A stretch of DNA of 64,000 bases from an uncultured Desulfohalobiaceae bacterium. GTDB lineage: Bacteria; Desulfobacterota; Desulfovibrionia; Desulfovibrionales; CAZUBS01. Positions 4,236-61,946 of the stretch are shown here, one piece after another (within the stretch, counting starts at the first letter, position 1; each line of letters opens with the position of its first letter). The position numbers and the translations under genes were made by a program. The DNA lies in assembly GCA_964594925.1 (NCBI GenBank), contig CAZQOG010000002.1, positions 389 to 64,388 on the forward strand, written 5' to 3'. A model generated the notes under the pieces. The model was not told where the DNA came from. It searched no databases and was given only the letters and a program-made list of their open reading frames with translations.

Positions 4236-5759
4236 ATGAACGTGCTCCTGGTCTATCCCAGCTATCCCGACACCTTCTGGAGCTTCAAGACCGTCCTCAA
4301 GTACATCTCCAAAAAGGCGGCCTTCCCGCCTCTGGGCCTGCTCACGGTGGCGGCCATGCTGCCTCGGGAGTGGAACCTGCGGCTGGTGGATGTCAACGTG
4401 CGGGAGTTGACGGACCAGGACCTGGGCTGGGCGGACCTGGTCATGATCAGCGCCATGATCGTGCAGAAGGACTCTGTTCACGCGATCATCGATCGCTGCG
4501 GTGAGCTGGGCAGGAAGGTCGTGGCCGGAGGGCCGCTGTTCAACACCCGCTGGGAAAGCTTCCCGCAGGTGGACCACTTCGTGCTCGACGAGGCCGAGGT
4601 CACCCTGCCCCTGTTCCTGGAGGATATGGCCCGGGGCGCAGGCAAGCGGATCTACCGTTCGAGCCGGCGTCCGGACATCAACACGACCCCGATCCCGGCC
4701 TGGCACCTCATCGACATGGAGGACTACGCCACCATGTGCGTGCAGTACTCCAGGGGGTGCCCCTTCAACTGCGAGTTCTGCGACATCATCATCATGAACG
4801 GCCGGGTACCCCGCACCAAAAAACCGGAGCGCCTTCTGGCCGAGCTTGAGTCCCTGTACAGCGCGGGATGGCGTCGTGGCGTTTTCATCGTGGACGACAA
4901 CTTCATCGGCAACACAAACAAGGTCAAGGCCATGCTGCCCCACCTCATCGCCTGGCAGCAGGCCCGCGGCCACCCCTTTCAGTTTCTGACCGAGGCCTCC
5001 ACCAACCTGGCCGACGACGAGGAACTGATGTGGCTCATGAGCGCGGCCAACTTCCACAAGGTCTTCCTGGGCATCGAGACCCCGGAGGTGGAAAGTCTGC
5101 GGGAGTGCGGCAAGCTCCAGAACGCCTCCCGCGACCTGGTCGCGGCGGTGCGGGTCATCCAGAGGCACGGGATGCAGGTCATGGGCGGGTTTATCGTGGG
5201 GTTTGACAGCGACACCGAGTCCACCTTCGAGGCCCAGGTCAGGTTCATCCAGCAGGTGGGCATTGTCACGGCCATGGTGGGGGTGCTCAACGCCCTGCCG
5301 CAGACAAAGCTCTGGCACCGGATGCGGGCCGAGAACAGGCTGCTGGAGGAGGTGCCCGGCGGGGAGAACACAGCCGCCGAGATCAACTTCATCCCCCGCA
5401 TGGGCCGGGACAGGCTCCTGCAGGGGTACCGCAGCGTCATCGGCAGCATCTACTCCAGGCGCATGTATTACAAGCGGATCAATGTCTTTCTCGCGGACTA
5501 CGTGCCCACGGTCAGGGGCCGCTTCACCCGCCGGGACCTGCGGCCCCTGTTCCTGAGCATGGTGCGTATCGGGATCTTCTCACTGAGCAGCGCCTTCTAC
5601 TGGAAGCTGCTCGTCAAGACCCTGTTCACCAAGGCCCGGGCCCTGCCCGAGGTCATCGAGATGACCATAGTGGGGGAGCATTACCGCCGGATGCGCAAGC
5701 GCGTGCTGGCTGCAGGGAGGGACGGGCTGGAGGTGCCGTTGAAAGGCAGTGAGTCCTGA
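4236..5759 (+). CDS. B12-binding-domain radical SAM protein (DUF4070-type C-terminus)
   Basis: 507-aa ORF with an N-terminal B12-binding-like region (LGLLTVAAML...DLVMISAM). Radical-SAM cluster motif YSRGCPFNCEFCD (CxxxCxxC). Long C-terminal extension as in DUF4070 proteins. Confidence 0.85.
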   Translation: MNVLLVYPSYPDTFWSFKTVLKYISKKAAFPPLGLLTVAAMLPREWNLRLVDVNVRELTDQDLGWADLVMISAMIVQKDSVHAIIDRCGELGRKVVAGGPLFNTRWESFPQVDHFVLDEAEVTLPLFLEDMARGAGKRIYRSSRRPDINTTPIPAWHLIDMEDYATMCVQYSRGCPFNCEFCDIIIMNGRVPRTKKPERLLAELESLYSAGWRRGVFIVDDNFIGNTNKVKAMLPHLIAWQQARGHPFQFLTEASTNLADDEELMWLMSAANFHKVFLGIETPEVESLRECGKLQNASRDLVAAVRVIQRHGMQVMGGFIVGFDSDTESTFEAQVRFIQQVGIVTAMVGVLNALPQTKLWHRMRAENRLLEEVPGGENTAAEINFIPRMGRDRLLQGYRSVIGSIYSRRMYYKRINVFLADYVPTVRGRFTRRDLRPLFLSMVRIGIFSLSSAFYWKLLVKTLFTKARALPEVIEMTIVGEHYRRMRKRVLAAGRDGLEVPLKGSES

Positions 5760-5816: not shown

Positions 5817-6491
5817 TTACTCTCCTTTGTGGCCGGCTGCTTGGGGTGCCAGGTCATCCAGCACCCTCCGGGTGCGCGAATCCGGATTGAGGTTGCGTTT
5901 CCTGAGGGCTGCAAGGTCCTTAACCGTGTCCACGTCCATCCAGGACGGAAGGCACTTGGCGGTCAGGCCGGCCTCGACCATGCGGGCCATGGTGGCCGCA
6001 AACACCTCCGGACCGCTCCAGACGATCCCGGAAAAGATATCCGGGGTGAAGGCCTCGGCCCAGAAGCCGATGCACCAGTAGCCGCCGTCCGCGGCAGGCC
6101 CGAGCACCGCGTCGTTGGTCTCCAGGGCGGCAAGGGCCTGGGTAACGTGGTCGCGGGGCAGGTCGGGCAGGTCGCTCCCGATGCACAGGGCCCTGTCATA
6201 CCCCTGGGCAAAGGCATCGGCAAAGGCACAGGCCATGCGCTCTCCGAGGTCCTCCCCCCGCTGGGGCAGGTAGAGGAGATCCGGCCCGAGCCAGGCGCGC
6301 AGCTCGGCCAGCCCGTGGGCCGGTGTGCCCACGACCAGGACCTGAACCTCGAGATCCTCAAACATGGCCAGCTGGTCCCGGACAAAGGCGCGGTAGAGGC
6401 GCAGGGCGGCCTGTGCTCCCAGCGCGGCTGCCAGGCGGGTCTTGACCTTGCCGATCTCGGGAAGACGGACGAAGAATAGGATGCAGGTCAT
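5817..6491 (-). CDS. DUF2064 / TIGR04282-like nucleotidyl- or glycosyl-transferase-like protein
   Basis: 224-aa ORF. ILFFVRLPEIGKVKTRLA...GEDLGERMACAF...CIGSDLPDLP...GPAADGGYWCIGF matches my recollection of the DUF2064 (CofC-like) family. Confidence 0.75.
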   Translation of the reverse strand: MTCILFFVRLPEIGKVKTRLAAALGAQAALRLYRAFVRDQLAMFEDLEVQVLVVGTPAHGLAELRAWLGPDLLYLPQRGEDLGERMACAFADAFAQGYDRALCIGSDLPDLPRDHVTQALAALETNDAVLGPAADGGYWCIGFWAEAFTPDIFSGIVWSGPEVFAATMARMVEAGLTAKCLPSWMDVDTVKDLAALRKRNLNPDSRTRRVLDDLAPQAAGHKGE

Positions 6492-6497
6492 GATTTC

Positions 6498-6525
6498 AAG
6501 GATGAAGGATAAAGGATGAAGGATG
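6498..6525. repeat. tandem heptad array (AAGGATG)x4, one variant unit AAGGATA
   Basis: Read directly: aaggatg aaggata aaggatg aaggatg. It fills the 40-nt spacer between the GT2 stop (6532) and the DUF2064 start (6491). Confidence 0.9.
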
Positions 6526-6531
6526 AGTTTT

Positions 6532-7227: not shown

Positions 7228-7344
7228 GGAGCTCCTTCCCGCACAGTGTAAGGGCAAACAGGAAAAGCGTCGAGACTCCGCGCCCGGGCCCAGGACAACT
7301 GCGTCTCAGACTGCCCAGTGGCCATTTCTTCTCCCCGTTTTCCT

Positions 7345-7378
7345 GCTTCGAGCTTCCAGCTTCCAGCTTCGAGCTTCC
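7345..7378. repeat. GAAG-family heptad array, 5 units (gcttcga gcttcca gcttcca gcttcga gcttcc)
   Basis: Read directly. Solo array in the divergent region between the GT2 gene (7227, minus) and the cytidylyltransferase gene (7431, plus). Confidence 0.9.
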
Positions 7379-22081: not shown

Positions 22082-22099
22082 AATCCGCCCTGCGGGCGA

Positions 22100-22220
22100 G
22101 TTCGAAGTTCGAAGCTCGAAGCTGAGAGCAAGGGAAAGAAAAGAAGCTGAAGCAAGGCTTCAGCAGTATTGCCTCCGGCCGGCCGGTCCTATCGGTCCTA
22201 CAGTGACGGCCGGCCGGAGG
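22100..22220. repeat. GAAG heptads followed by two further hairpins in the same intergenic region
   Basis: Heptads gttcgaa gttcgaa gctcgaa gctgaga (22100-22127). 8-bp stem gctgaagc/gcttcagc (22146-22164). 14-bp GC stem cctccggccggccg/cggccggccggagg (22172-22220) whose loop holds two nonamer-type units, gtcctatcg gtcctacag. Confidence 0.85.
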
Positions 22221-22273
22221 CTTCACCACAGCGCTGTCCGGCAGCACAGCATGTAACGCGAAGAGGAACACCA

Positions 22274-27320: not shown

Positions 27321-27416
27321 CTTTTCTTGCTTCGAGCTTTAAGCCTCGAGCCCTATTCTTCTTGCTTCGAGCTTCCAGCTTCCAGCTTCGAGCTTTATTC
27401 TTCTTGTTTCGAGCCA
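27321..27416. repeat. composite GAAG-family heptad region with a higher-order ttcttcttgYttcgagc repeat
   Basis: Read directly: ...ttcttgcttcgagcttt aagcctcgagccct attcttcttgcttcgagcttccagcttccagcttcgagcttt attcttcttgtttcgagcc. Confidence 0.85.
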
Positions 27417-27443
27417 GAGGCGCAGCCGATTCTATTCTTTTTT

Positions 27444-27478
27444 CATCCTTCCGCCCTCATCCTTCATCCTTTTCTTCC
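27444..27478. repeat. CATCCTT heptad array (reverse complement of the AAGGATG family)
   Basis: catcctt ccgccct catcctt catcctt ttcttcc. Overlaps the last codons and stop of the MerR-like gene (…EEKDEG*). Confidence 0.85.
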
Positions 27479-52532: not shown

Positions 52533-52738
52533 GAGAAACCTTTTGCTGCGGGGTTGCCGAACAACGGGGCCGGGGTTTACAAACGACACAAAAGATACCC
52601 ATCAAAATGATACTGTGCAACAGAATGGTGCAAAGGACAAATGACAAAATGAGGCAGGCACGGGTCTGATCGGTCCGATTCCTCAGGCCCCCCGATGCCC
52701 TTCCTCTGTCCCCTCCACCAACCTCAGAGACAACCGCC

Positions 52739-53881
52739 ATGCCAAGCCACCGCTTTCTCCGTCTGCCTGTCCTTTTTCTGCTCCTCGCCCTGCTGTCCTG
52801 CGGGGGGCGGCAGGAGCCGGTCTGGTGGGACAGTGCCCTGGACCAGGAGCTGGACAGGGAGATCGGCCAGATGCTCCTGGTCGGTTTCAGGGGGCAGACC
52901 CTGGACCGCGGCTCGAGCCTGGCGCGGGACCTGGAGCGGCTGCACATCGGGGGGGTGATCCTGTTCGACTACGATGTGGAGCTCAAGAAGCCGGGCCGGA
53001 ACATTCACAGCCCCGAGCAGGTGCGCCGGTTGACGCGCCGGCTCCAGTCCCTGGCCCGGACGCCCCTGTTCGTCGCCGTGGACCAGGAGGGGGGGCGGGT
53101 CACCCGTCTCAAGCCCGAGTATGGATTTGCGCCCCTGCCCTCTGCCGCGGAAATGGGCAAGGGCCGGTCCCAGAGGACGGAGCAGCTGGCTGCGGCAATG
53201 GCCCGGACCATGGCCGAGCTGGGAATCAACCTGGACTTTGCTCCGGTCCTGGATCTGAACGTCAACCCGGACAGCCCGGTCATCGGCAAGCTGGGGCGCA
53301 GCTTCGGCCGCGACCCGGAACGGGTCGCGGCCCACGGGCAGGCCTTTGTGCAGGGGCTCCACCGGGGCGGGGTCCTGGCCTGCGTCAAGCATTTCCCGGG
53401 CCACGGCAGCAGCCTGGCCGACTCCCACCAGGGCTTCACCGATGTCAGCGCCACCTGGTCGCGGGAGGAGCTGGAGCCCTTTGCCGCCCTGATCCGCTCC
53501 GGAGAGTGCGACATGGTCATGACCGGCCACCTCTTCAACAGCCGTCTGGACCCCCGGCATCCCGCCACCCTGTCGCGCAAGACCATCACAGGCCTGCTGC
53601 GCGGGGCCCTGGGCTTCGACGGGGTGGTGGTCACCGACGACCTGCAGATGGGGGCCATCAGCCGCCACTACGGCATGGAGCAGGCCATGGAGCTGGCCGT
53701 GAACGCCGGGGCGGACATCCTGCTCCTGGGCAACAACCTGGAGTACGACCCCAACATGGCCCGCAGGGCCCACTCCATCGTGAAGAAGCTGGTGCGGGAG
53801 GAAAAGATTTCCCGGTCCCGTATCAAGGAATCCTACGAGCGCATAATGCGACTGAAGTCACGGTTGGGGGCAGCGGGCTGA
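52739..53881 (+). CDS. glycoside hydrolase family 3 lipoprotein (NagZ-like beta-N-acetylhexosaminidase)
   Basis: 380-aa ORF with lipobox LLLALLSCGG. GH3 motifs FVAVDQEGGRV and VKHFPGHGSSLADSH. Confidence 0.85.
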   Translation: MPSHRFLRLPVLFLLLALLSCGGRQEPVWWDSALDQELDREIGQMLLVGFRGQTLDRGSSLARDLERLHIGGVILFDYDVELKKPGRNIHSPEQVRRLTRRLQSLARTPLFVAVDQEGGRVTRLKPEYGFAPLPSAAEMGKGRSQRTEQLAAAMARTMAELGINLDFAPVLDLNVNPDSPVIGKLGRSFGRDPERVAAHGQAFVQGLHRGGVLACVKHFPGHGSSLADSHQGFTDVSATWSREELEPFAALIRSGECDMVMTGHLFNSRLDPRHPATLSRKTITGLLRGALGFDGVVVTDDLQMGAISRHYGMEQAMELAVNAGADILLLGNNLEYDPNMARRAHSIVKKLVREEKISRSRIKESYERIMRLKSRLGAAG

Positions 53882-53916
53882 TCCGTCCGATCCGACGGAT
53901 CGGTGCGGTGCAGGCG

Positions 53917-55955: not shown

Positions 55956-56837
55956 TCAGTCCAGGGCCTTGCGCAGAGCCCGGGCCACGCTCAGCAGGTT
56001 GTCGTTCCAGTCCCGGGCCAGAGGGTCGGCGACCACCACCTCGGCTCCAATGGCCCCGGCAATGGTTTCGGCACTCTTGCGGGAGAACTGCGGCTGCACG
56101 AAAATGGTGCTCACGGCGTGCTCGCGGGCTTGCTCCATGAGCTGGGACAACTCTCTGGGGCTGGGTTCCCCTCCCTGGATTTCGATGGCCATCTGCTCGA
56201 GACCGTAGGTCCGGGCGAAGTATCCCCAGGAGGGGTGGAAGACCATGAATGCCCCGCCTGTGACCGGGGTCAGGATCTCGCGGATCAGGCGGTCCAGGGT
56301 GTCCAGCTCTCCGCGGAACAGCTCGAACTGGGCGGAGTAGTGGCCGGAGTTGGCCGGGTCCAGCCGGGACAAGGCCTCCATGATGACCCGGGCCTGGGTC
56401 TTGACCAGGGGCGGGGCGAGCCAGATGTGCGGATCCGGGATGCCGTGGTCCCCTGCGTGGCGGTGCTTTTCCTTCCCCTGCTCATGATGACCGTGGGCCT
56501 GCATGGGCATGCGCTCGACCGCGTCCTCGGTGTGCACGATGCGCATGGTCGGATTGGCCGCGGCGATCCGGTCCAGCCAGACCCGCTCGAACGGGACCCC
56601 AACGGCAAAGTAGAGCGAGGCTTCAGCCAGGGCGGTCATCTGCCGGGGCCGCGGCTCATAGGTGGCCGGGCTGGCCCCGGGCGGCACCAGGAACTCCACG
56701 TCCACGTACTCCCCCCCGATGCGTTCGACAAAGGTCTTCTGGGGGGGGATGCTGACAAAGACCTTGAGGGGAGCGGCCCAAAGGCTCGAGGCAGAGAGCA
56801 GGATCAGGGCGCAGGCCAGGAGTATGCAACGGGGCAC
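55956..56837 (-). CDS. znuA: periplasmic zinc-binding protein (cluster-9/TroA family) with His-rich loop
   Basis: GTG start behind GGAGAA and a signal peptide. His-rich insert HGHHEQGKEKHRHAGDHGIPDPHIW is characteristic of ZnuA. Confidence 0.88.
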   Translation of the reverse strand: MPRCILLACALILLSASSLWAAPLKVFVSIPPQKTFVERIGGEYVDVEFLVPPGASPATYEPRPRQMTALAEASLYFAVGVPFERVWLDRIAAANPTMRIVHTEDAVERMPMQAHGHHEQGKEKHRHAGDHGIPDPHIWLAPPLVKTQARVIMEALSRLDPANSGHYSAQFELFRGELDTLDRLIREILTPVTGGAFMVFHPSWGYFARTYGLEQMAIEIQGGEPSPRELSQLMEQAREHAVSTIFVQPQFSRKSAETIAGAIGAEVVVADPLARDWNDNLLSVARALRKALD

Positions 56838-56874: not shown

Positions 56875-56907
56875 ACAGCCCAATGCAACAGAGTTGCATT
56901 GGGCTGT
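56875..56907. promoter_or_regulatory. Zur operator candidate: perfect 15+15 palindrome around ATGCAAC-aga-GTTGCAT
   Basis: acagcccaatgcaac aga gttgcattgggctgt, 38-70 nt upstream of the znuA start. The core matches the ATGCAAC-N3-GTTGCAT Zur motif I recall for Desulfovibrio znu operons. Confidence 0.7.
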
Positions 56908-56933
56908 CAAGAAGGAGTCGCCGGCTGAAAGGC

Positions 56934-57068
56934 AATAGGACTGATAGGACCGATAGGACGGATAGGACCGATAGGACCGGCGAAAATCACTTTCGTCCTA
57001 TCGTCCCATAGTCCTATGGGGGGGGTCCTATCCGTCCTATCCGTCCTATCGGTCCTATCCGTCCTACC
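56934..57068. repeat. inverted arrays of a 9-nt tandem repeat (GATAGGACC)
   Basis: 56934-56978: aataggact gataggacc gataggacg gataggacc gataggacc. A 14-nt spacer follows, then 56995-57068: gtcctatcg ... gtcctatcc gtcctatcc gtcctatcg gtcctatcc gtcctacc, interrupted by cccatag-tc-ctatggg. Confidence 0.9.
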
Positions 57069-57082
57069 ACAGCCCCCCCCCC

Positions 57083-58501
57083 TCACAAATACGGCGTAAA
57101 CAACCAGCACAGCGCATCCCGCACCCGCACCGGCAGGGGCCTTGAGTCCACCTCCTCCAGGGTGACCTCCCTGGACCTGGCGCGCACGCTCTCGAAGTGG
57201 TCGGCGAGTTCCCCGGCCAGCCCGCGGTGGAAGACCTCGACCCCGAACTCGAAGTTGAGGCGCATGCTGCGGTTGTCGATGTTGGCCGATCCCACCAGGG
57301 TGTAGAGGTCGTCCACCAGGAAGATCTTGGAGTGGGCAAAAGGGGGGGGCTGCTCATAGACGCGCACCCCCCGTTCCAAAAGCTCCCAGAGCAGGTTGCG
57401 CGAGGCCCACTTCACAAAGGGCAGGTTGTTCTTCTCCGGCAGGATCACGGCCACGTCCACCCCGCGCAGGGAGGCCGCGTTGAGGCTGGCGATGAGGTCG
57501 CGGGAGGGCAAAAAGTACGGGGTCATGATCGAGATGCGCGACCGGGCCGCGGACACGGCCCCTTCGATGATCAGGGCCAATCGGTTGATCTCGTGGTTGG
57601 GTCCGTCCATGACCGCCCGGCACTGAGCCTCCCCGGCAGGCGCAACCGGCCGCCCCGGTTCGTCGCTCCCCCCGTTGCAGAAGTTCCAGTCGTTGAGGAA
57701 GGCCGCCTCCAACTGAGCGGCCACCGGACCCTGGAAGCGGAAGTGCACGTCCACGACCCTGGAGGGGTTGGCGCTGTGAGCTGCCAGGTGGCGATCCCCT
57801 ATGTTCATGCCGCCCGTGAAGGCCACGGAGGTGTCGGCCACCAGTATCTTGCGGTGGTTGCGCAGGTTGAGGGCCAGGGTCAGGGGGTTGCGCCAGGGCG
57901 GGAGGAACCTGGCCATGCGCAGCCCCCGCTTGGCGAGCAGGCGCCCGGCCAGGGGCAGGGAGTAGAGCTCCCCGATGCCGTCCAGGATGACCCGCACGTC
58001 CACCCCTCTGTCCGCGGCTGCAGCCAGGGCGTCGATGAACCGTCGCCCGGTCCGGTTGGACTCGAAGATGTAGGTGGAGAGAAAGACACGCCTGCGTGCG
58101 GACTCGATGGCCTGAAGCATGGCCGGATAGGCCTGCTCGCCGTTGTGCAGCACGTCCACCTGGTTGCCCCGGACCAGGGGCAGCCCGGTCACGGCGTCGG
58201 AAATGCGCTGCAGGCCCTGGTAGGCATCGGAGACCAGGGGCTGGGGGTCAGCTTTGTCCTCTGCCAGGCGCACGGCCTCCAGGGCCCCGTCCCTGAGTGT
58301 CTCAAGCTTCCTGGCCTTGGTCCTGACCCGGTTGATGCCGAACAGGAGGTAGAGCAGCGGGCCGAAGACCGGGAACACCAGGCAGACGGCGATCCAGCCC
58401 AGTGAGGCCCGGGGGTCGCGCTTGTAGAGCAGGGCGTGCAGCGCTGTCCCGGCGGAAAAGAGCAGGGACAGAGCCACCAGCACCCAGTTGATGTAGGGCA
58501 T
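57083..58501 (-). CDS. cls: cardiolipin synthase (PLD superfamily)
   Basis: 472-aa ORF with two N-terminal TM helices. Two HKD motifs (NHRKILVAD and AHSKIFLVDD). Confidence 0.92.
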   Translation of the reverse strand: MPYINWVLVALSLLFSAGTALHALLYKRDPRASLGWIAVCLVFPVFGPLLYLLFGINRVRTKARKLETLRDGALEAVRLAEDKADPQPLVSDAYQGLQRISDAVTGLPLVRGNQVDVLHNGEQAYPAMLQAIESARRRVFLSTYIFESNRTGRRFIDALAAAADRGVDVRVILDGIGELYSLPLAGRLLAKRGLRMARFLPPWRNPLTLALNLRNHRKILVADTSVAFTGGMNIGDRHLAAHSANPSRVVDVHFRFQGPVAAQLEAAFLNDWNFCNGGSDEPGRPVAPAGEAQCRAVMDGPNHEINRLALIIEGAVSAARSRISIMTPYFLPSRDLIASLNAASLRGVDVAVILPEKNNLPFVKWASRNLLWELLERGVRVYEQPPPFAHSKIFLVDDLYTLVGSANIDNRSMRLNFEFGVEVFHRGLAGELADHFESVRARSREVTLEEVDSRPLPVRVRDALCWLFTPYL

Positions 58502-58522: not shown

Positions 58523-61500
58523 TCAGTCCACGGTGTCCAGCGAAAAGCTCACCTCGGGTGTGCCGTCCTCACCCAGGACCTCGGGAGGGCGCATGGTGAT
58601 CCTCTCCTGGTCCAGCCCTCCCTGCTCGGTGAGCACATGGGCCACGGTCCGGGCTCGTTGCAGGCCCAGGGCTTCCAAGGCCCCCTCGGACAGCTCCTGG
58701 GCCTCCCTGAGACGCTCGAAGAGCTCCCGGGCCAGTCGCTCGTTGCCCCTGCCCTCGGCAAACTCCGTGGCATTCTGGTCCGCTTCGGCCGTAAGTGACC
58801 GGACCAGCTCGTTCATGGTGCCGAAGCCGAAACGCTCCCCGTACAGGGCCTTGAGCGTGTCCAGAACGGTGCGGCTCTCCAGGTTCACAGGCCCGGGGTC
58901 CTCTCCCGCCTCCAGCTGACGGCCCACCTTCCCGGCCATCTGGCGGCGCAGCATCAGGTCACGGAGCGCCCTGGCGTCTGCCTCGGGCTCCCAGCGTCCC
59001 TGCACTGTGAGGGCGAGCTCGGGGCGCTCGGCCAGGGCCTGGGCCAGCTGGACGGCCTTTTCCTGCTCGGGGGGCGGCAGGTCGGAGCGGCCCGGCTCGA
59101 AGGAGACTGAGTCGATGTCGTCCGAGCCCAGGTCGGGCAGCAGGGCCCCCAGGATGCGAAAGGGCGAGGTCACGATCTTGGTCAGCAGGTTGAAGATGGC
59201 CCGTCCGATGAGGTGGCCGAAGCCGAACTCCGGGTCGTTCAGGTCTCCCTTGACGGGCAGCCCGATGTCGATGGTGCCGCTGCTGTCCTTGAGCAGTGCC
59301 ACGGCCAGCTTGAGGGGCAGGTTCACGGCCTGTTCGCTCTGCACCTCCTCCCCCAGGGTGAGCTCCTCGACCACGATTTCGTTCTCCCCCTGCAGGGTGG
59401 CGTTTAGGATGTTGTACTCCAGATCCAGGTAGAGCTTGCCCGAGGCGATCTTGCGGCCGGCAAAGGTTGCCGTATAGGGGTTCAGGGTGGTCATGGATAC
59501 GTTTTCAAAGACCACGGTGACATCGGTGAAGCGCTTGGGGTCGAAGAAGTCCATGCTGCCCTTGATGGTGGACACGCCGTACTGGTCGACCTGCCCGTCG
59601 AGATCGATGCTTGCTTCTGCCCCGGATGTGGAGGTGATCTCGCTGACCATTCCCTTGAGGTCGTGGATGGTGCTCGAGAATGGGAGAACCAGGCTCCGGT
59701 CGGTGAAGTCCAGGGTTCCATCGGAGATCCGCAGGGAACCAACACTGACTGGAAAGGGGTCTGCACCGGACGGTTCGGTGGGAGGCGGCTCTGCCGGAGC
59801 TGTGGCATTGCCCTCCCTGGTCTTGAAGACTTCGACCACATTGACCCTTTTTTCCTCGTCGATGATCAGCCGTCCCCGGGGCTCGGTGAGCTGGACCTCG
59901 CCGATTGTCAGCCCGTGTGGCTGCAGGGCCAGGCGAAAAGAATCGGTGTGCAGACGTTTCCACCCCAGCAGGGTGGCGTTGGCCTCCCGTTCCACGATGT
60001 TCAGGTCGTCCACCCCGAGCTCGGCGTCAAGCTCCAGAGGAAAGCCTTCCCCCTCCCCCCCGGCATTCAGGCCGGCGTCAAGGGTCAGGGTGCCGGAGCG
60101 CAGGTCCACCAGGGCCACCGAGTCGATGTAGGGCTGGGCCGGCAGCAGGGACAGATCCTTCAGGCTGACCCCGGCCTGCACCTGCCCCGAATCGGGGTCG
60201 ACCGTACCGTTGGCGCTGAAGGAGCCGCCCTGCTCCACAGTGAAGGACATGGAGAGGGGAAAAGTGTCGGTGGTGGTGACCTGCAGGGCTTCTGCAGAGA
60301 GGTCGGCAAGGGAAAGGATCGGTGCGTCGGCCTGCACGGTCCTGTCCGCATAGTCGATGGAAAAACCCGAAACCCCGGCCCGCTCCAGGGAGGCCTGCCA
60401 CTTTTCGGCTGCTTCGGTGCCCTCGGAGGAGGGCTCTTCTGTCCTGGTGGCATTGGCAGCTGTGAGCAGGGCCGCCCAGTTGATCCCCTCGCTGCTTCGC
60501 AGGACCTGGAGTGATCCGTCGGTGACGAGCAGCTGTCCGGCCGTGAGGGAGCGCTTTGCGAGATCGAAGTTCCCTCCGTCCAGGCCGAGGCTGGATATGG
60601 TCAGCTCGGGTCGGCTGCCCAGCGGACCCGCCTCGATGCCCTGCAGGTCCACCCGGGCAGAGCTGACCAGGGCCTGGAGCTGGGAGCCGGTGCGCAGGGA
60701 AGCTGCAAAGGACGCGGACGAGTCAGCCAGCCGCACCTGCAGGGGCAGGGTGCGGCTCTGATCTTCGACCTTCAGGCCCAGGTGATCGAGGGTCACCTCT
60801 TCAAAGACGATCTCCCACGGGGCGGCTTCGGCCGTTTCGTCGGGGCCGGCTTGGTCCTCACCGGGGCGTGTTGCGGGCTGCCAGGCCCGGGACAGGTTGA
60901 GGGTCCCGTCCCTGGACAGCAGGACGTCCAGGGTTGCGTTGGCAAAGCCAAGTGCGGGGATGTCCAGGCGCCTGGCCGCCAGGTCGAAGGAACCGTTGTC
61001 CAGCATGACCCGGCCCAGCTCGAGAAAGGGCTGCCCGGCTTGGGGCAGGCTCAGGGCCAGGTTGTTCAGTGCCGCGCTGATGTCCCGGCATTGGAAGGTG
61101 ACATCCGCCCCCTTGGTATCCAGGACATACTCGGTCTCCAGGTCCAGGGTTCCCTGGGGAGGCGCGGTGTTCAGGCTGGAGAGCAGAAACTCCTGCAGGG
61201 TTTCGGTCCGGATATTTTCAAAGGACAGCGTGCCGTTGGAGGAGAACGGGGTCAGGAGAAGGACCCCTGTCCAGGTCAGGGACTCCTCCCGGCCCGTTGT
61301 GGCCTGCAGCGTGTATGGGCCTTCCCGATCGGGCAGGGTGGACAGGTTGGCCAGCTCCAGGTCGATGGGGTCGAAGGCGATCGCCGCAGGCGGTGACTGG
61401 CGCAGATTGTCAAACTCCAGGGTGCCGTTGCTCACTTCGATGTGGTGCAGCAGCAACCGGAGGGGGTCGCCGTTTGCGTCTTCAGTGCGCCCGGCGTCCT

Positions 61501-61906
61501 GGGTGGCGTTGTCCGCCCGGCTCAGCCGGGACAGGTTGAGGTTGCCGTTCTCCATCAGGACCAGGCCCAGGTAGGGCTTGTCCAGGCTGACCTGCTTGAA
61601 GGTCAGGGCCCAGCGGAAGAGGCTGGAGAGCTGGAAGTTGAGGTACAGTCGATGAAACCCGGCAAATGGAGTCTTATCCGGAAAGCCGATGCGGAAGTCC
61701 CTGGCCTCGATGGAAAGGACAAAGGGGTTGATGTTCACCTCCCCCAGCTCCACTTGGCAGTTGTAGCGCTCCTCCAGGGCCTCGGGCGCCTGGTTGGCCA
61801 CCAGTGCAGGGGCGATGAAGAAGCCGAAGACGGTGTACAAAGCCAGCAGGCCGGCTGCAGCGGGCAGCATCCATTTCCAGGGGGGGCGGGTCAGAAAATT
61901 CTTCAT
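58523..61906 (-). CDS. DUF748 domain-containing large envelope protein (AsmA-like)
   Basis: ORF track 58523..61936, trimmed to ATG 61906 (MKNFLTRPPWKWMLPAAAGLLALYTVFGFFIAPALV). N-terminal anchor plus long beta-rich repeats, as I recall for DUF748 proteins. Confidence 0.75.
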   Translation of the reverse strand: MKNFLTRPPWKWMLPAAAGLLALYTVFGFFIAPALVANQAPEALEERYNCQVELGEVNINPFVLSIEARDFRIGFPDKTPFAGFHRLYLNFQLSSLFRWALTFKQVSLDKPYLGLVLMENGNLNLSRLSRADNATQDAGRTEDANGDPLRLLLHHIEVSNGTLEFDNLRQSPPAAIAFDPIDLELANLSTLPDREGPYTLQATTGREESLTWTGVLLLTPFSSNGTLSFENIRTETLQEFLLSSLNTAPPQGTLDLETEYVLDTKGADVTFQCRDISAALNNLALSLPQAGQPFLELGRVMLDNGSFDLAARRLDIPALGFANATLDVLLSRDGTLNLSRAWQPATRPGEDQAGPDETAEAAPWEIVFEEVTLDHLGLKVEDQSRTLPLQVRLADSSASFAASLRTGSQLQALVSSARVDLQGIEAGPLGSRPELTISSLGLDGGNFDLAKRSLTAGQLLVTDGSLQVLRSSEGINWAALLTAANATRTEEPSSEGTEAAEKWQASLERAGVSGFSIDYADRTVQADAPILSLADLSAEALQVTTTDTFPLSMSFTVEQGGSFSANGTVDPDSGQVQAGVSLKDLSLLPAQPYIDSVALVDLRSGTLTLDAGLNAGGEGEGFPLELDAELGVDDLNIVEREANATLLGWKRLHTDSFRLALQPHGLTIGEVQLTEPRGRLIIDEEKRVNVVEVFKTREGNATAPAEPPPTEPSGADPFPVSVGSLRISDGTLDFTDRSLVLPFSSTIHDLKGMVSEITSTSGAEASIDLDGQVDQYGVSTIKGSMDFFDPKRFTDVTVVFENVSMTTLNPYTATFAGRKIASGKLYLDLEYNILNATLQGENEIVVEELTLGEEVQSEQAVNLPLKLAVALLKDSSGTIDIGLPVKGDLNDPEFGFGHLIGRAIFNLLTKIVTSPFRILGALLPDLGSDDIDSVSFEPGRSDLPPPEQEKAVQLAQALAERPELALTVQGRWEPEADARALRDLMLRRQMAGKVGRQLEAGEDPGPVNLESRTVLDTLKALYGERFGFGTMNELVRSLTAEADQNATEFAEGRGNERLARELFERLREAQELSEGALEALGLQRARTVAHVLTEQGGLDQERITMRPPEVLGEDGTPEVSFSLDTVD

Positions 61907-61946
61907 GGCCGGTTGCTCCTCTTCTCCATACCACACCGTATGCTTT

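Follow-up and report, generated by a model that had tools for sequence, protein, structure and literature searches.

The window analyzed here, a stretch of 64,000 nt from an uncultured member of the Desulfohalobiaceae, contains a cardiolipin synthase gene (cls) that is separated from the genes znuA-znuC-znuB-zur by a spacer of 245 nt (Table 1). All genes in this region are encoded on the minus strand, including znuC, znuB, and the Fur-family gene, which follow znuA. The first half of the spacer is occupied by two facing arrays of a 9-nt repeat, whose first TAGGAC core begins 17 nt after the cls stop codon (TCA on the plus strand, positions 57083–57085). The order of cls, foldback, Zur operator, and znuA-znuC-znuB-zur had been proposed in an initial inspection without database searches (the sequence-only reading) and proved correct, as did the placement of the foldback between the cls stop, with its C10 run, and the operator. 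The (TDR)n ORF that runs over the array is spurious, as had been assumed.

The foldback extends from position 56935 to 57069 and consists of head-to-head units of the form A-TAGGAC-N-R, whose arrangement in inverted 9-nt arrays, already recognized in the sequence-only reading, is evident from the sequence itself, from Tandem Repeats Finder, and from the complementarity of the arms. It comprises five units per array and three inner units, together with a G8 run and a flanking C10 run. The linkers of the znuA-proximal arm are, in order, TG, CG, GG, CG, and CG, and the arm is complementary to its cls-proximal counterpart, with which it pairs. The mini-palindrome CCCATAG-TC-CTATGGG (57005–57020) and the G8 run had been described accurately; the central spacer is present as well but measures 15 nt instead of the 14 nt originally given.

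Table 1. Features of the cls-znuA region and of a second nonamer site in the window.
Feature	Position	Strand	Description or basis
DUF748 protein gene	58523–61936	−	
cls, cardiolipin synthase, 472 aa	57083–58501	−	PLDc domains and similarity to proteins named cardiolipin synthase
C10 run (G10 in cls sense)	57073–57082		Abuts cls stop
cls-proximal arm, five reverse units GTCCTATCN	57025–57069	−	TAGGAC-NGA in cls sense
G8 run (C8 in cls sense)	57018–57025		Between inner units and outer arm
Inner units GTCCTATC, GTCCCATA, GTCCTATG	56995–57018	−	cls-side orientation, with mini-palindrome CCCATAG-TC-CTATGGG
Central spacer GCGAAAATCACTTTC, 15 nt	56980–56994	none	
znuA-proximal arm, five tandem ATAGGAC-NG nonamers	56935–56979	+	Sequence, Tandem Repeats Finder
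TTGACA, −35-like hexamer	56905–56910	−	Homology among all five orthologous spacers resumes here
Predicted Zur_D-type operator ATGCAAC-AGA-GTTGCAT	56883–56899		Match to Zur box
znuA, first gene of znuA-znuC-znuB-zur	55956–56837	−	PF01297
Two units GGTCCTATCGGTCCTAC, the only convincing site in the window besides the main element	22186–22201	−	One mismatch to two units

The nonamer foldback between cls and znuA is real and far above chance. Period-9 arrays were detected at positions 56935–56979 (5.0 copies) and 57025–57066 (4.7 copies), and the arms at 56936–56978 and 57024–57066 (43 nt each) are 95% complementary. The 8-mer GATAGGAC occurs 10 times in the window, with an expectation of 0.62 and a maximum of 3 in shuffled sequences; nine of the ten copies fall inside the foldback. 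The RNA of the foldback in cls sense (148 nt) folds at −98.7 kcal/mol (z = −12.45 relative to shuffles), and a longer version (236 nt) reaches −142.6 kcal/mol (z = −12.75).

The TTGACA hexamer is located approximately 25 nt beyond the end of the foldback and upstream of the predicted Zur box. It probably belongs to a promoter; a promoter/terminator scan found no full sigma-70 match in this region. Just downstream of the hexamer, the predicted operator is identical to the Zur box ATGCAACnnnGTTGCAT predicted for the znuABC-zur operons of Desulfovibrio (PMC545781), and it is this site, not the nonamer arrays, that matches the Zur box. Its core is kept in all relatives examined, and a perfect palindrome of 15 + 15 nt that surrounds it (ACAGCCC...GGGCTGT, 56875–56907) is peculiar to the window.

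The Cls of the window is 100% identical to P0124, which assigns the window to an NCBI metagenome-assembled contig of 64,625 nt. Its relatives are labeled as Desulfohalobiaceae or Desulfovibrionales. Three of them also contain the TAGGAC foldback: L002, which is 86.9% identical over 6.7 kb and whose contig ends inside the array; L255, which covers the entire cls-znuA spacer; and the Logan contig L247, whose ZnuA is identical to that of the window and which breaks off within the outermost unit. The znuA-side arm has five units in the window and in L255 versus three in L002, a clean difference of 18 nt (two units). Further differences among the orthologs concern the linkers, some of the cores, the loop, and the homopolymer flanks. 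The inner units, including the mini-palindrome, are conserved in L002 and L255, and the central spacer is not; the orthologs have a G7 with 5 extra nt in place of the G8 run, and L255 has T7G7 at the position of the C10 run. A palindrome in the loop (CGAAAAT-C-ACTTTCG) was considered as a second Zur box of the actinobacterial type and discarded, since neither L002 nor L255 conserves it.

In L248 and L249, two further relatives, another nonamer foldback takes the place of the TAGGAC element (4419–4560 in each). It is based on GTGGAC, with (AGTGGACCA)n facing (nnnGTCCAC)n, and is followed by an A7 run, a small GC hairpin, and CTTCATC-type heptamers, after which homology resumes at TTGACA. The GTCCACA of this allele resembles TTGTCCACA, which we take to be a high-GC DnaA box. 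The 3′ end of cls in L248 and L249 is 92–95% identical to that of the window. Its last 523 nt are 98.5% identical in L248 and L255, yet the adjacent spacers hold GTGGAC and TAGGAC alleles, respectively, so that the spacer must be subject either to very rapid turnover or to recombinational exchange. L002 and L248 are contigs CAZUBS010000103.1 and CAZUBS010000079.1 of one MAG, which contains both alleles on separate contigs, with slightly different Zur-box regions, reflecting either the joint binning of two strains or a fork in the assembly graph at the repeat.

In each of the five orthologous spacers, the cls stop is directly followed by an inverted array of nonamers, which in two cases consists of the different unit. 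An empty site was not found among the close relatives, and sister strains hold a different foldback in the spacer. The RNA of the GTGGAC-type allele of L249 folds no better than shuffles (z = −1.6). The foldback may be a functionless by-product, that is, a slippage-prone and possibly selfish element that is tolerated after stop codons and away from promoters but plays no role in expression. The gain or loss of whole units between close relatives, the replacement of the entire element between strains that are 98.5% identical in the flanking cls, and the weak hairpin of L249 are all consistent with such an origin, whereas the retention of an inverted nonamer array in all five relatives is not.

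The sequence-only reading had considered the nonamer a second dispersed family, based on degenerate copies at four other sites. In the window, one of these is convincing; its two units sit in the loop of a GC-rich hairpin (~22167–22222), so that the dispersal within the window amounts to one extra two-unit copy, whereas the dispersal across genomes and phyla is real (see below). The hairpin in this region (22160–22225) is formed by GCCTCCGGCCGGCC and GGCCGGCCGGAGGC, with two GTCCTA units in its loop, and is preceded by TATTGCCT, which also flanks the main element. The other three sites did not hold up. The stretch at 52664–52679 has three mismatches to nonamer units, which is near chance, and no nonamer copy was found in the window around 30270. 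The stretch at 53880–53901 is a weak period-9 run (GATCCGACC, 2.4 copies) of a different unit, not of the TAGGAC family, and forms a small hairpin between a convergent gene that ends at 53881 and a Fur-family gene. An enrichment of G/C homopolymers (≥7) in the window was considered and rejected, with 27 runs observed versus ~53 expected.

Intergenic heptamer arrays are abundant in the window, with units such as AGTTCGA, GCTTCCA, AAGGATG, GAAGCTG, and similar. Many of them form inverted pairs, with the GAAG type first and the CTTC type second (10652–10681/10860–10883, 12235–12264/12311–12348, 40219–40257/40330–40360, and 43768–43791/43840–43865/43951–43988), and show the same purine-first polarity as the nonamer element; others are solo arrays (6498–6526, 7340–7378, 22099–22121, and 27329–27471). 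The heptamer arrays occupy spacers at the 3′ ends of genes. The array at 6498–6526, (AAGGATG)x4, takes up an entire 40-nt spacer between two co-directional genes on the minus strand; in gene sense, it reads (CATCCTT)n, which is anti-Shine-Dalgarno-like, at the place where a ribosome-binding site is expected.

The nonamer is not restricted to this locus. A scan of one genome per species (species representatives) with a query of 2.5 units detected the TAGGAC nonamer at at least 119 loci, which rules out that the cls-znuA foldback is merely a local oddity. The unit of the family is A-TAGGAC-N-[G/A/T], with a strongly conserved core of 7 nt and a free linker of 2 nt. Among the matches listed, 57 foldbacks consist of a TAGGAC array, a spacer, and a GTCCTA array, versus only 3 in the reversed arrangement; their spacers range from 0 to 140 nt (median 24) and their arms from 2 to 11 units. 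Of these 57 foldbacks, 51 belong to Acidobacteriota (40 to Thermoanaerobaculia); Hydrogenedentales, Planctomycetota, and the present lineage of Desulfovibrionales contribute two each among the matches listed. At least 37 arrays are solo, lacking a partner arm, and solo or degenerate arrays extend to further groups, including Verrucomicrobiota, Lentisphaeria, Chlorobaculum, and Streptomyces. The nonamer forms a family of fixed polarity that is present in at least four phyla. In the negative control, not a single array was found in 80 unrelated bacterial loci (406 kb), which came from a metagenome scan with Cls whose best match was 59% identical and which hence include no orthologs.

The family is apparently undescribed. 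A scan of the window and 18 array-rich loci against Rfam at the gathering thresholds returned only tRNAs, and an E-value scan yielded only generic, sub-threshold matches to miRNA hairpins. Literature searches with the unit sequence returned only primers, and keyword searches returned no description of the nonamer family. A recurrent neighboring protein was not found across the at least 119 loci. The largest cluster of neighboring proteins comprises 12 loci, one of its members being an ORF of the L002 znu region; it is taken to be a ubiquitous ABC-transporter family. The cluster member P0122 proved unrelated.

Several members of the family show additional features. A foldback is conserved between two species of Thermoanaerobaculia (L026, 1675–1765, and L094, 1381–1477; 82% identity), with homology on one side only, indicating that a synteny break coincides with the foldback; in L094, a GC hairpin of 45 nt is inserted beside one arm. 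In the MAG DASVEE01 (Thermoanaerobaculia), some of the foldback spacers (L006, ~6175–6255; L012, ~1370–1450; L077, ~1185–1240) enclose a second repeated palindrome, GGCCTGCGGACC ... GGTCCGCAGGCC, which suggests nested repeat families. In a MAG of Thermoanaerobaculia (L009, 6519–6608 and 6657–6730), a nonamer foldback is located ~50 nt downstream of a tRNA gene.

An identical nonamer also occurs, at very high copy, in IMG/VR contigs (L120–L166), where it forms a collagen-like (Gly-Pro-Ile)n coding repeat; some of these ORFs exceed 1000 aa and contain dozens of arrays. A viral origin was rejected because the 47 viral matches are collagen-like coding repeats, not foldbacks. It is extremely improbable that the chromosomal arrays are relics or fragments of such coding sequences or artifacts of assembly. 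Gly-Pro-Ile can be encoded by both strands of the unit, the nonamer abounds in the long ORFs of the 47 viral contigs as well as in some collagen-like genes of bacteria (L041, L112), and contigs assembled from short reads often end within the array (L002, L247, L250). However, the arrays at the cls-znuA locus are inverted, include TAG codons in frame, and occupy a spacer of 245 nt flanked by two well-supported genes, and the element is present in three independent assemblies that differ in sequence. The arrays of the window are intergenic, carry TAGs, and are crossed only by spurious ORFs, whereas the viral matches are genuinely of the collagen-like coding type.

The position of the arrays was taken from crude, GC3-based gene calls. 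Among the matches listed, foldbacks occupy 27 co-directional, 13 convergent, and 3 divergent spacers (n = 43), compared with a background of 58%, 26%, and 16% in the loci examined (divergent, 16–19%); divergent spacers are only marginally depleted (p = 0.07 by count and 0.03 by length). In co-directional spacers, the foldback is nearer to the upstream stop than to the downstream start in 22 of 26 cases (counted by hand; two-sided sign test, p ~0.0005), and in about one-third of the gene ends, according to the crude calls, the first TAG of the element is itself the stop codon of the adjacent gene. The possibility that the TAGs of the arrays serve as in-frame backup stops was rejected; after exclusion of the own-stop cases, a hand count gave 12 of 34 in frame, as expected by chance. 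Solo arrays near the 3′ end of a gene carry TAGGAC in the sense of that gene in 13 of 16 cases (13:3).

The conserved core and the orientation of the solo arrays raise the possibility that the units are binding sites of a conserved or horizontally spread sequence-specific protein and that the hairpin is incidental. Such a protein would bind double-stranded DNA or the purine-rich RNA after the stop, and head-to-head arrays would load two opposed filaments. This explanation would accommodate the conservation of the 7-nt core next to a free linker whose pairing is not maintained, the fixed polarity, the existence of solo arrays with TAGGAC in the sense of the upstream gene (13/16), and the recurrence of one core across phyla. 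It is nevertheless unlikely: a candidate protein is not known, no gene recurs beside the arrays at the at least 119 loci, the spacing of 9 bp is off the helical repeat of DNA, and sister strains have GTGGAC in place of the TAGGAC unit at this site. Moreover, the orientation test includes few solo arrays (n = 16).

Across the family, the two arms of a foldback behave independently. Linker bases show no covariation between the arms (0.747 vs. 0.733 ± 0.012 in shuffles), and arm lengths are uncorrelated (rho = 0.19, p = 0.16), so nothing shows selection for pairing. There is no asymmetry between gene-proximal and gene-distal arms, and complementarity of the flanks beyond the arrays is at the null level; the arrays start abruptly at unique flanks. 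A U-tract 3′ of the stem is absent across the family (T fraction of 0.21 vs. a background of 0.18), and the flanks are C-rich. The same is true for the window locus, where the stem is followed by UUGCCUUUCAGCC in cls sense, and the promoter/terminator scan of the window did not call the big hairpin a terminator. Flanking direct repeats that would indicate target-site duplications are no commoner than in shuffled pairings, a test that is weakened by the fuzzy edges of the arrays.

The independence of the arms is also a property expected of scars left by enzyme-made repeats. In this scenario, 9-nt repeats would have been added to the two 3′ ends of a broken chromosome by a reverse transcriptase resembling telomerase or DRT10, or by some comparable repeat-adding activity, and the subsequent joining would have placed (X)n opposite (X′)n. 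Both the architecture and the strict polarity are as predicted. The arms differ in linkers and lengths as if their ends had been extended separately, the arrays start abruptly at unique flanks that lack complementarity, and the variability is restricted to the unit junction. Bacterial reverse transcriptases that produce 9-nt tandem-repeat DNA exist, but the products of DRT10 are protein-primed single-stranded DNA, for which integration was not reported, and its unit, GAATCATTG, is unrelated to the TAGGAC nonamer (bioRxiv 10.1101/2025.10.16.682844). DRT10 is a precedent only for the chemistry. Scar formation predicts neither spacers as long as 140 nt nor inner units that are locally palindromic, the placement at gene 3′ ends would require an added selection step, and no reverse transcriptase is linked to the arrays, which makes this scenario highly improbable.

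In a broader formulation, the arrays would be the chromosomal footprint of a sequence-specific system that is shared or exchanged between distant phyla, and the hairpin would be secondary. The system could be an enzyme that adds ATAGGACNR to DNA 3′ ends, such as a break-healing telomerase-like or DRT10-like reverse transcriptase, or else a dedicated protein that recognizes the 7-nt core, either in DNA or in the part of the mRNA that directly follows the stop. Its signature would be fixed polarity, independent arms, a conserved core with a free junction, and rapid replacement of alleles. We consider it decidedly unlikely.

The interpretation that we put forward, with a probability of roughly 0.45, is that the element is a slippage-prone simple-sequence hairpin that acts as a transcript 3′-end barrier between cls and the Zur-controlled promoter. 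The arms in the cls transcript would zip into an interrupted hairpin of ~45 bp, which may cause RNA polymerase to pause or terminate, or protect against 3′ exonucleases; the resulting barrier would separate transcription of cls from the Zur-repressed promoter of znuABC-zur ~25 nt downstream. Since any unit of one arm can pair with any unit of the other, slippage would alter the length of the hairpin but leave it intact. With the fixed polarity, the 3′ arm would be pyrimidine-rich whichever strand is transcribed. A pyrimidine-rich 3′ arm makes for the weakest RNA:DNA hybrid, which would be reached upon completion of the hairpin and may stand in for a U-tract. The arrays themselves would arise and turn over through replication slippage and recombination.

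Several observations argue for such a barrier. Among the matches listed, the polarity of the foldbacks is 57:3, 22 of 26 are stop-proximal, and only 3 of 43 lie in divergent spacers. The heptamer foldbacks in the 3′-end spacers of the window share the purine-first polarity, the two-unit difference between L002 and the window or L255 has the form expected of slippage, one foldback directly follows a tRNA gene, and every one of the five orthologous spacers retains an inverted nonamer array. The lack of a U-tract, the non-covarying arms, the at least 37 solo arrays, and the weak hairpin of L249 count against it. The role of a terminator or insulator, which had been assigned to the foldback in the sequence-only reading, is plausible and partly supported, namely by the position and stability of the hairpin but not by a U-tract, by co-evolution of the arms, or by the folding of the L249 allele. 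A purely structural role does not account for the recurrence of the 7-nt core across phyla, and the termination of about one-third of the genes at the TAG of the element looks more like an invasion of gene ends than like a designed terminator.

Some of these properties also point to a functionless by-product: the independence of the arms in linker content and length, the lack of a U-tract, the synteny break at the foldback of two species of Thermoanaerobaculia, and the fact that about one-third of the neighboring ORFs end at the first TAG. Other properties argue against it. Random slippage should give rise to lineage-specific units, not to one 7-nt core in many phyla, and 406 kb of unrelated bacterial loci contain no array; likewise, the polarity of 57:3 among the matches listed and the sense orientation of the solo arrays (13:3) are unexpected under neutral slippage. 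A by-product without any function appears somewhat unlikely.

The comparison with known systems places the nonamer foldback among the intergenic palindromic and short-tandem repeats. Like REP/BIME elements, it is a dispersed, palindromic, intergenic repeat that follows the 3′ ends of genes in co-directional or convergent spacers, and REP/BIME elements are likewise often arranged as inverted pairs, transcribed as 3′-UTR hairpins, and variable among strains. By contrast, REPs are complex, species-specific units of 20–40 nt that are tied to a RAYT transposase, whereas the nonamer element consists of tandem 9-mers with a cross-phylum core and no linked gene was found; regarding copy number, the 64-kb window contains one full copy and one two-unit copy. 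Lacking a complex unit, the nonamer element is not a REP. Intrinsic (Rho-independent) terminators, including bidirectional ones, share with it a stable hairpin just after the stop, whose symmetry yields the same hairpin on either strand, but differ in their U-tract and in their stem of 5–12 bp, compared with a repeat-built stem of 43 bp with periodic mismatches. Because it lacks the U-tract, the foldback is not a classical intrinsic terminator.

Another group of similar repeats are the STRR heptamers of heterocystous cyanobacteria, which are short tandem intergenic units that occur at many loci and are shared by distant lineages. The TAACTGA heptamers of marine Beggiatoaceae are also intergenic, occur at many loci and in distant lineages, and are located upstream of start codons (PMC4679880). 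Both are 7-mers in mostly direct arrays, whereas the nonamer is a 9-mer in facing arrays of fixed polarity that abut stops. The heptamer arrays in the window look like members of the STRR/TAACTGA class; the nonamer element likewise consists of short tandem intergenic units at many loci, with a unit of 9 nt and inverted arrays. With the foldback (FB) transposons of Drosophila and with MITEs, it shares long inverted arms of tandem short repeats, a variable middle, and polymorphism among strains, but no target-site duplication was detected, the ends and the interior are unconserved, and the host is a bacterium. We know of no transposase for the nonamer foldback, and because a target-site duplication is lacking, it is not a typical MITE or foldback transposon. 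DRT10 (UG17) makes tandem DNA repeats with an exact 9-nt period in bacteria, but they are extrachromosomal, protein-linked, single-stranded DNA with another unit. Of the repeat and terminator classes compared here, all except the loosely defined STRR class have a defining feature that the element lacks. It would work most like REP/BIME elements or bidirectional terminators, and it looks most like STRRs, the TAACTGA repeats of Beggiatoaceae, and foldback transposons.

In practical terms, the arrays break short-read assemblies (L002, L247, L250) and generate spurious ORFs, and in about one-third of the cases, judged from the crude gene calls, the neighboring gene takes its stop codon from the array. 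The occurrence of a 7-nt core with strict polarity and sense orientation across phyla points to an activity that recognizes or generates it. At the window locus, the foldback is the only obvious barrier between the constitutive transcription of cls and a zinc-repressed promoter. Intrinsic terminators are poorly defined in high-GC lineages such as Acidobacteriota, Planctomycetota, and Desulfovibrionales. If the behavior proposed here is true, the nonamer foldbacks would be a simple-sequence counterpart of REP elements and would provide these lineages with 3′-end hairpins that require no U-tract and tolerate slippage.
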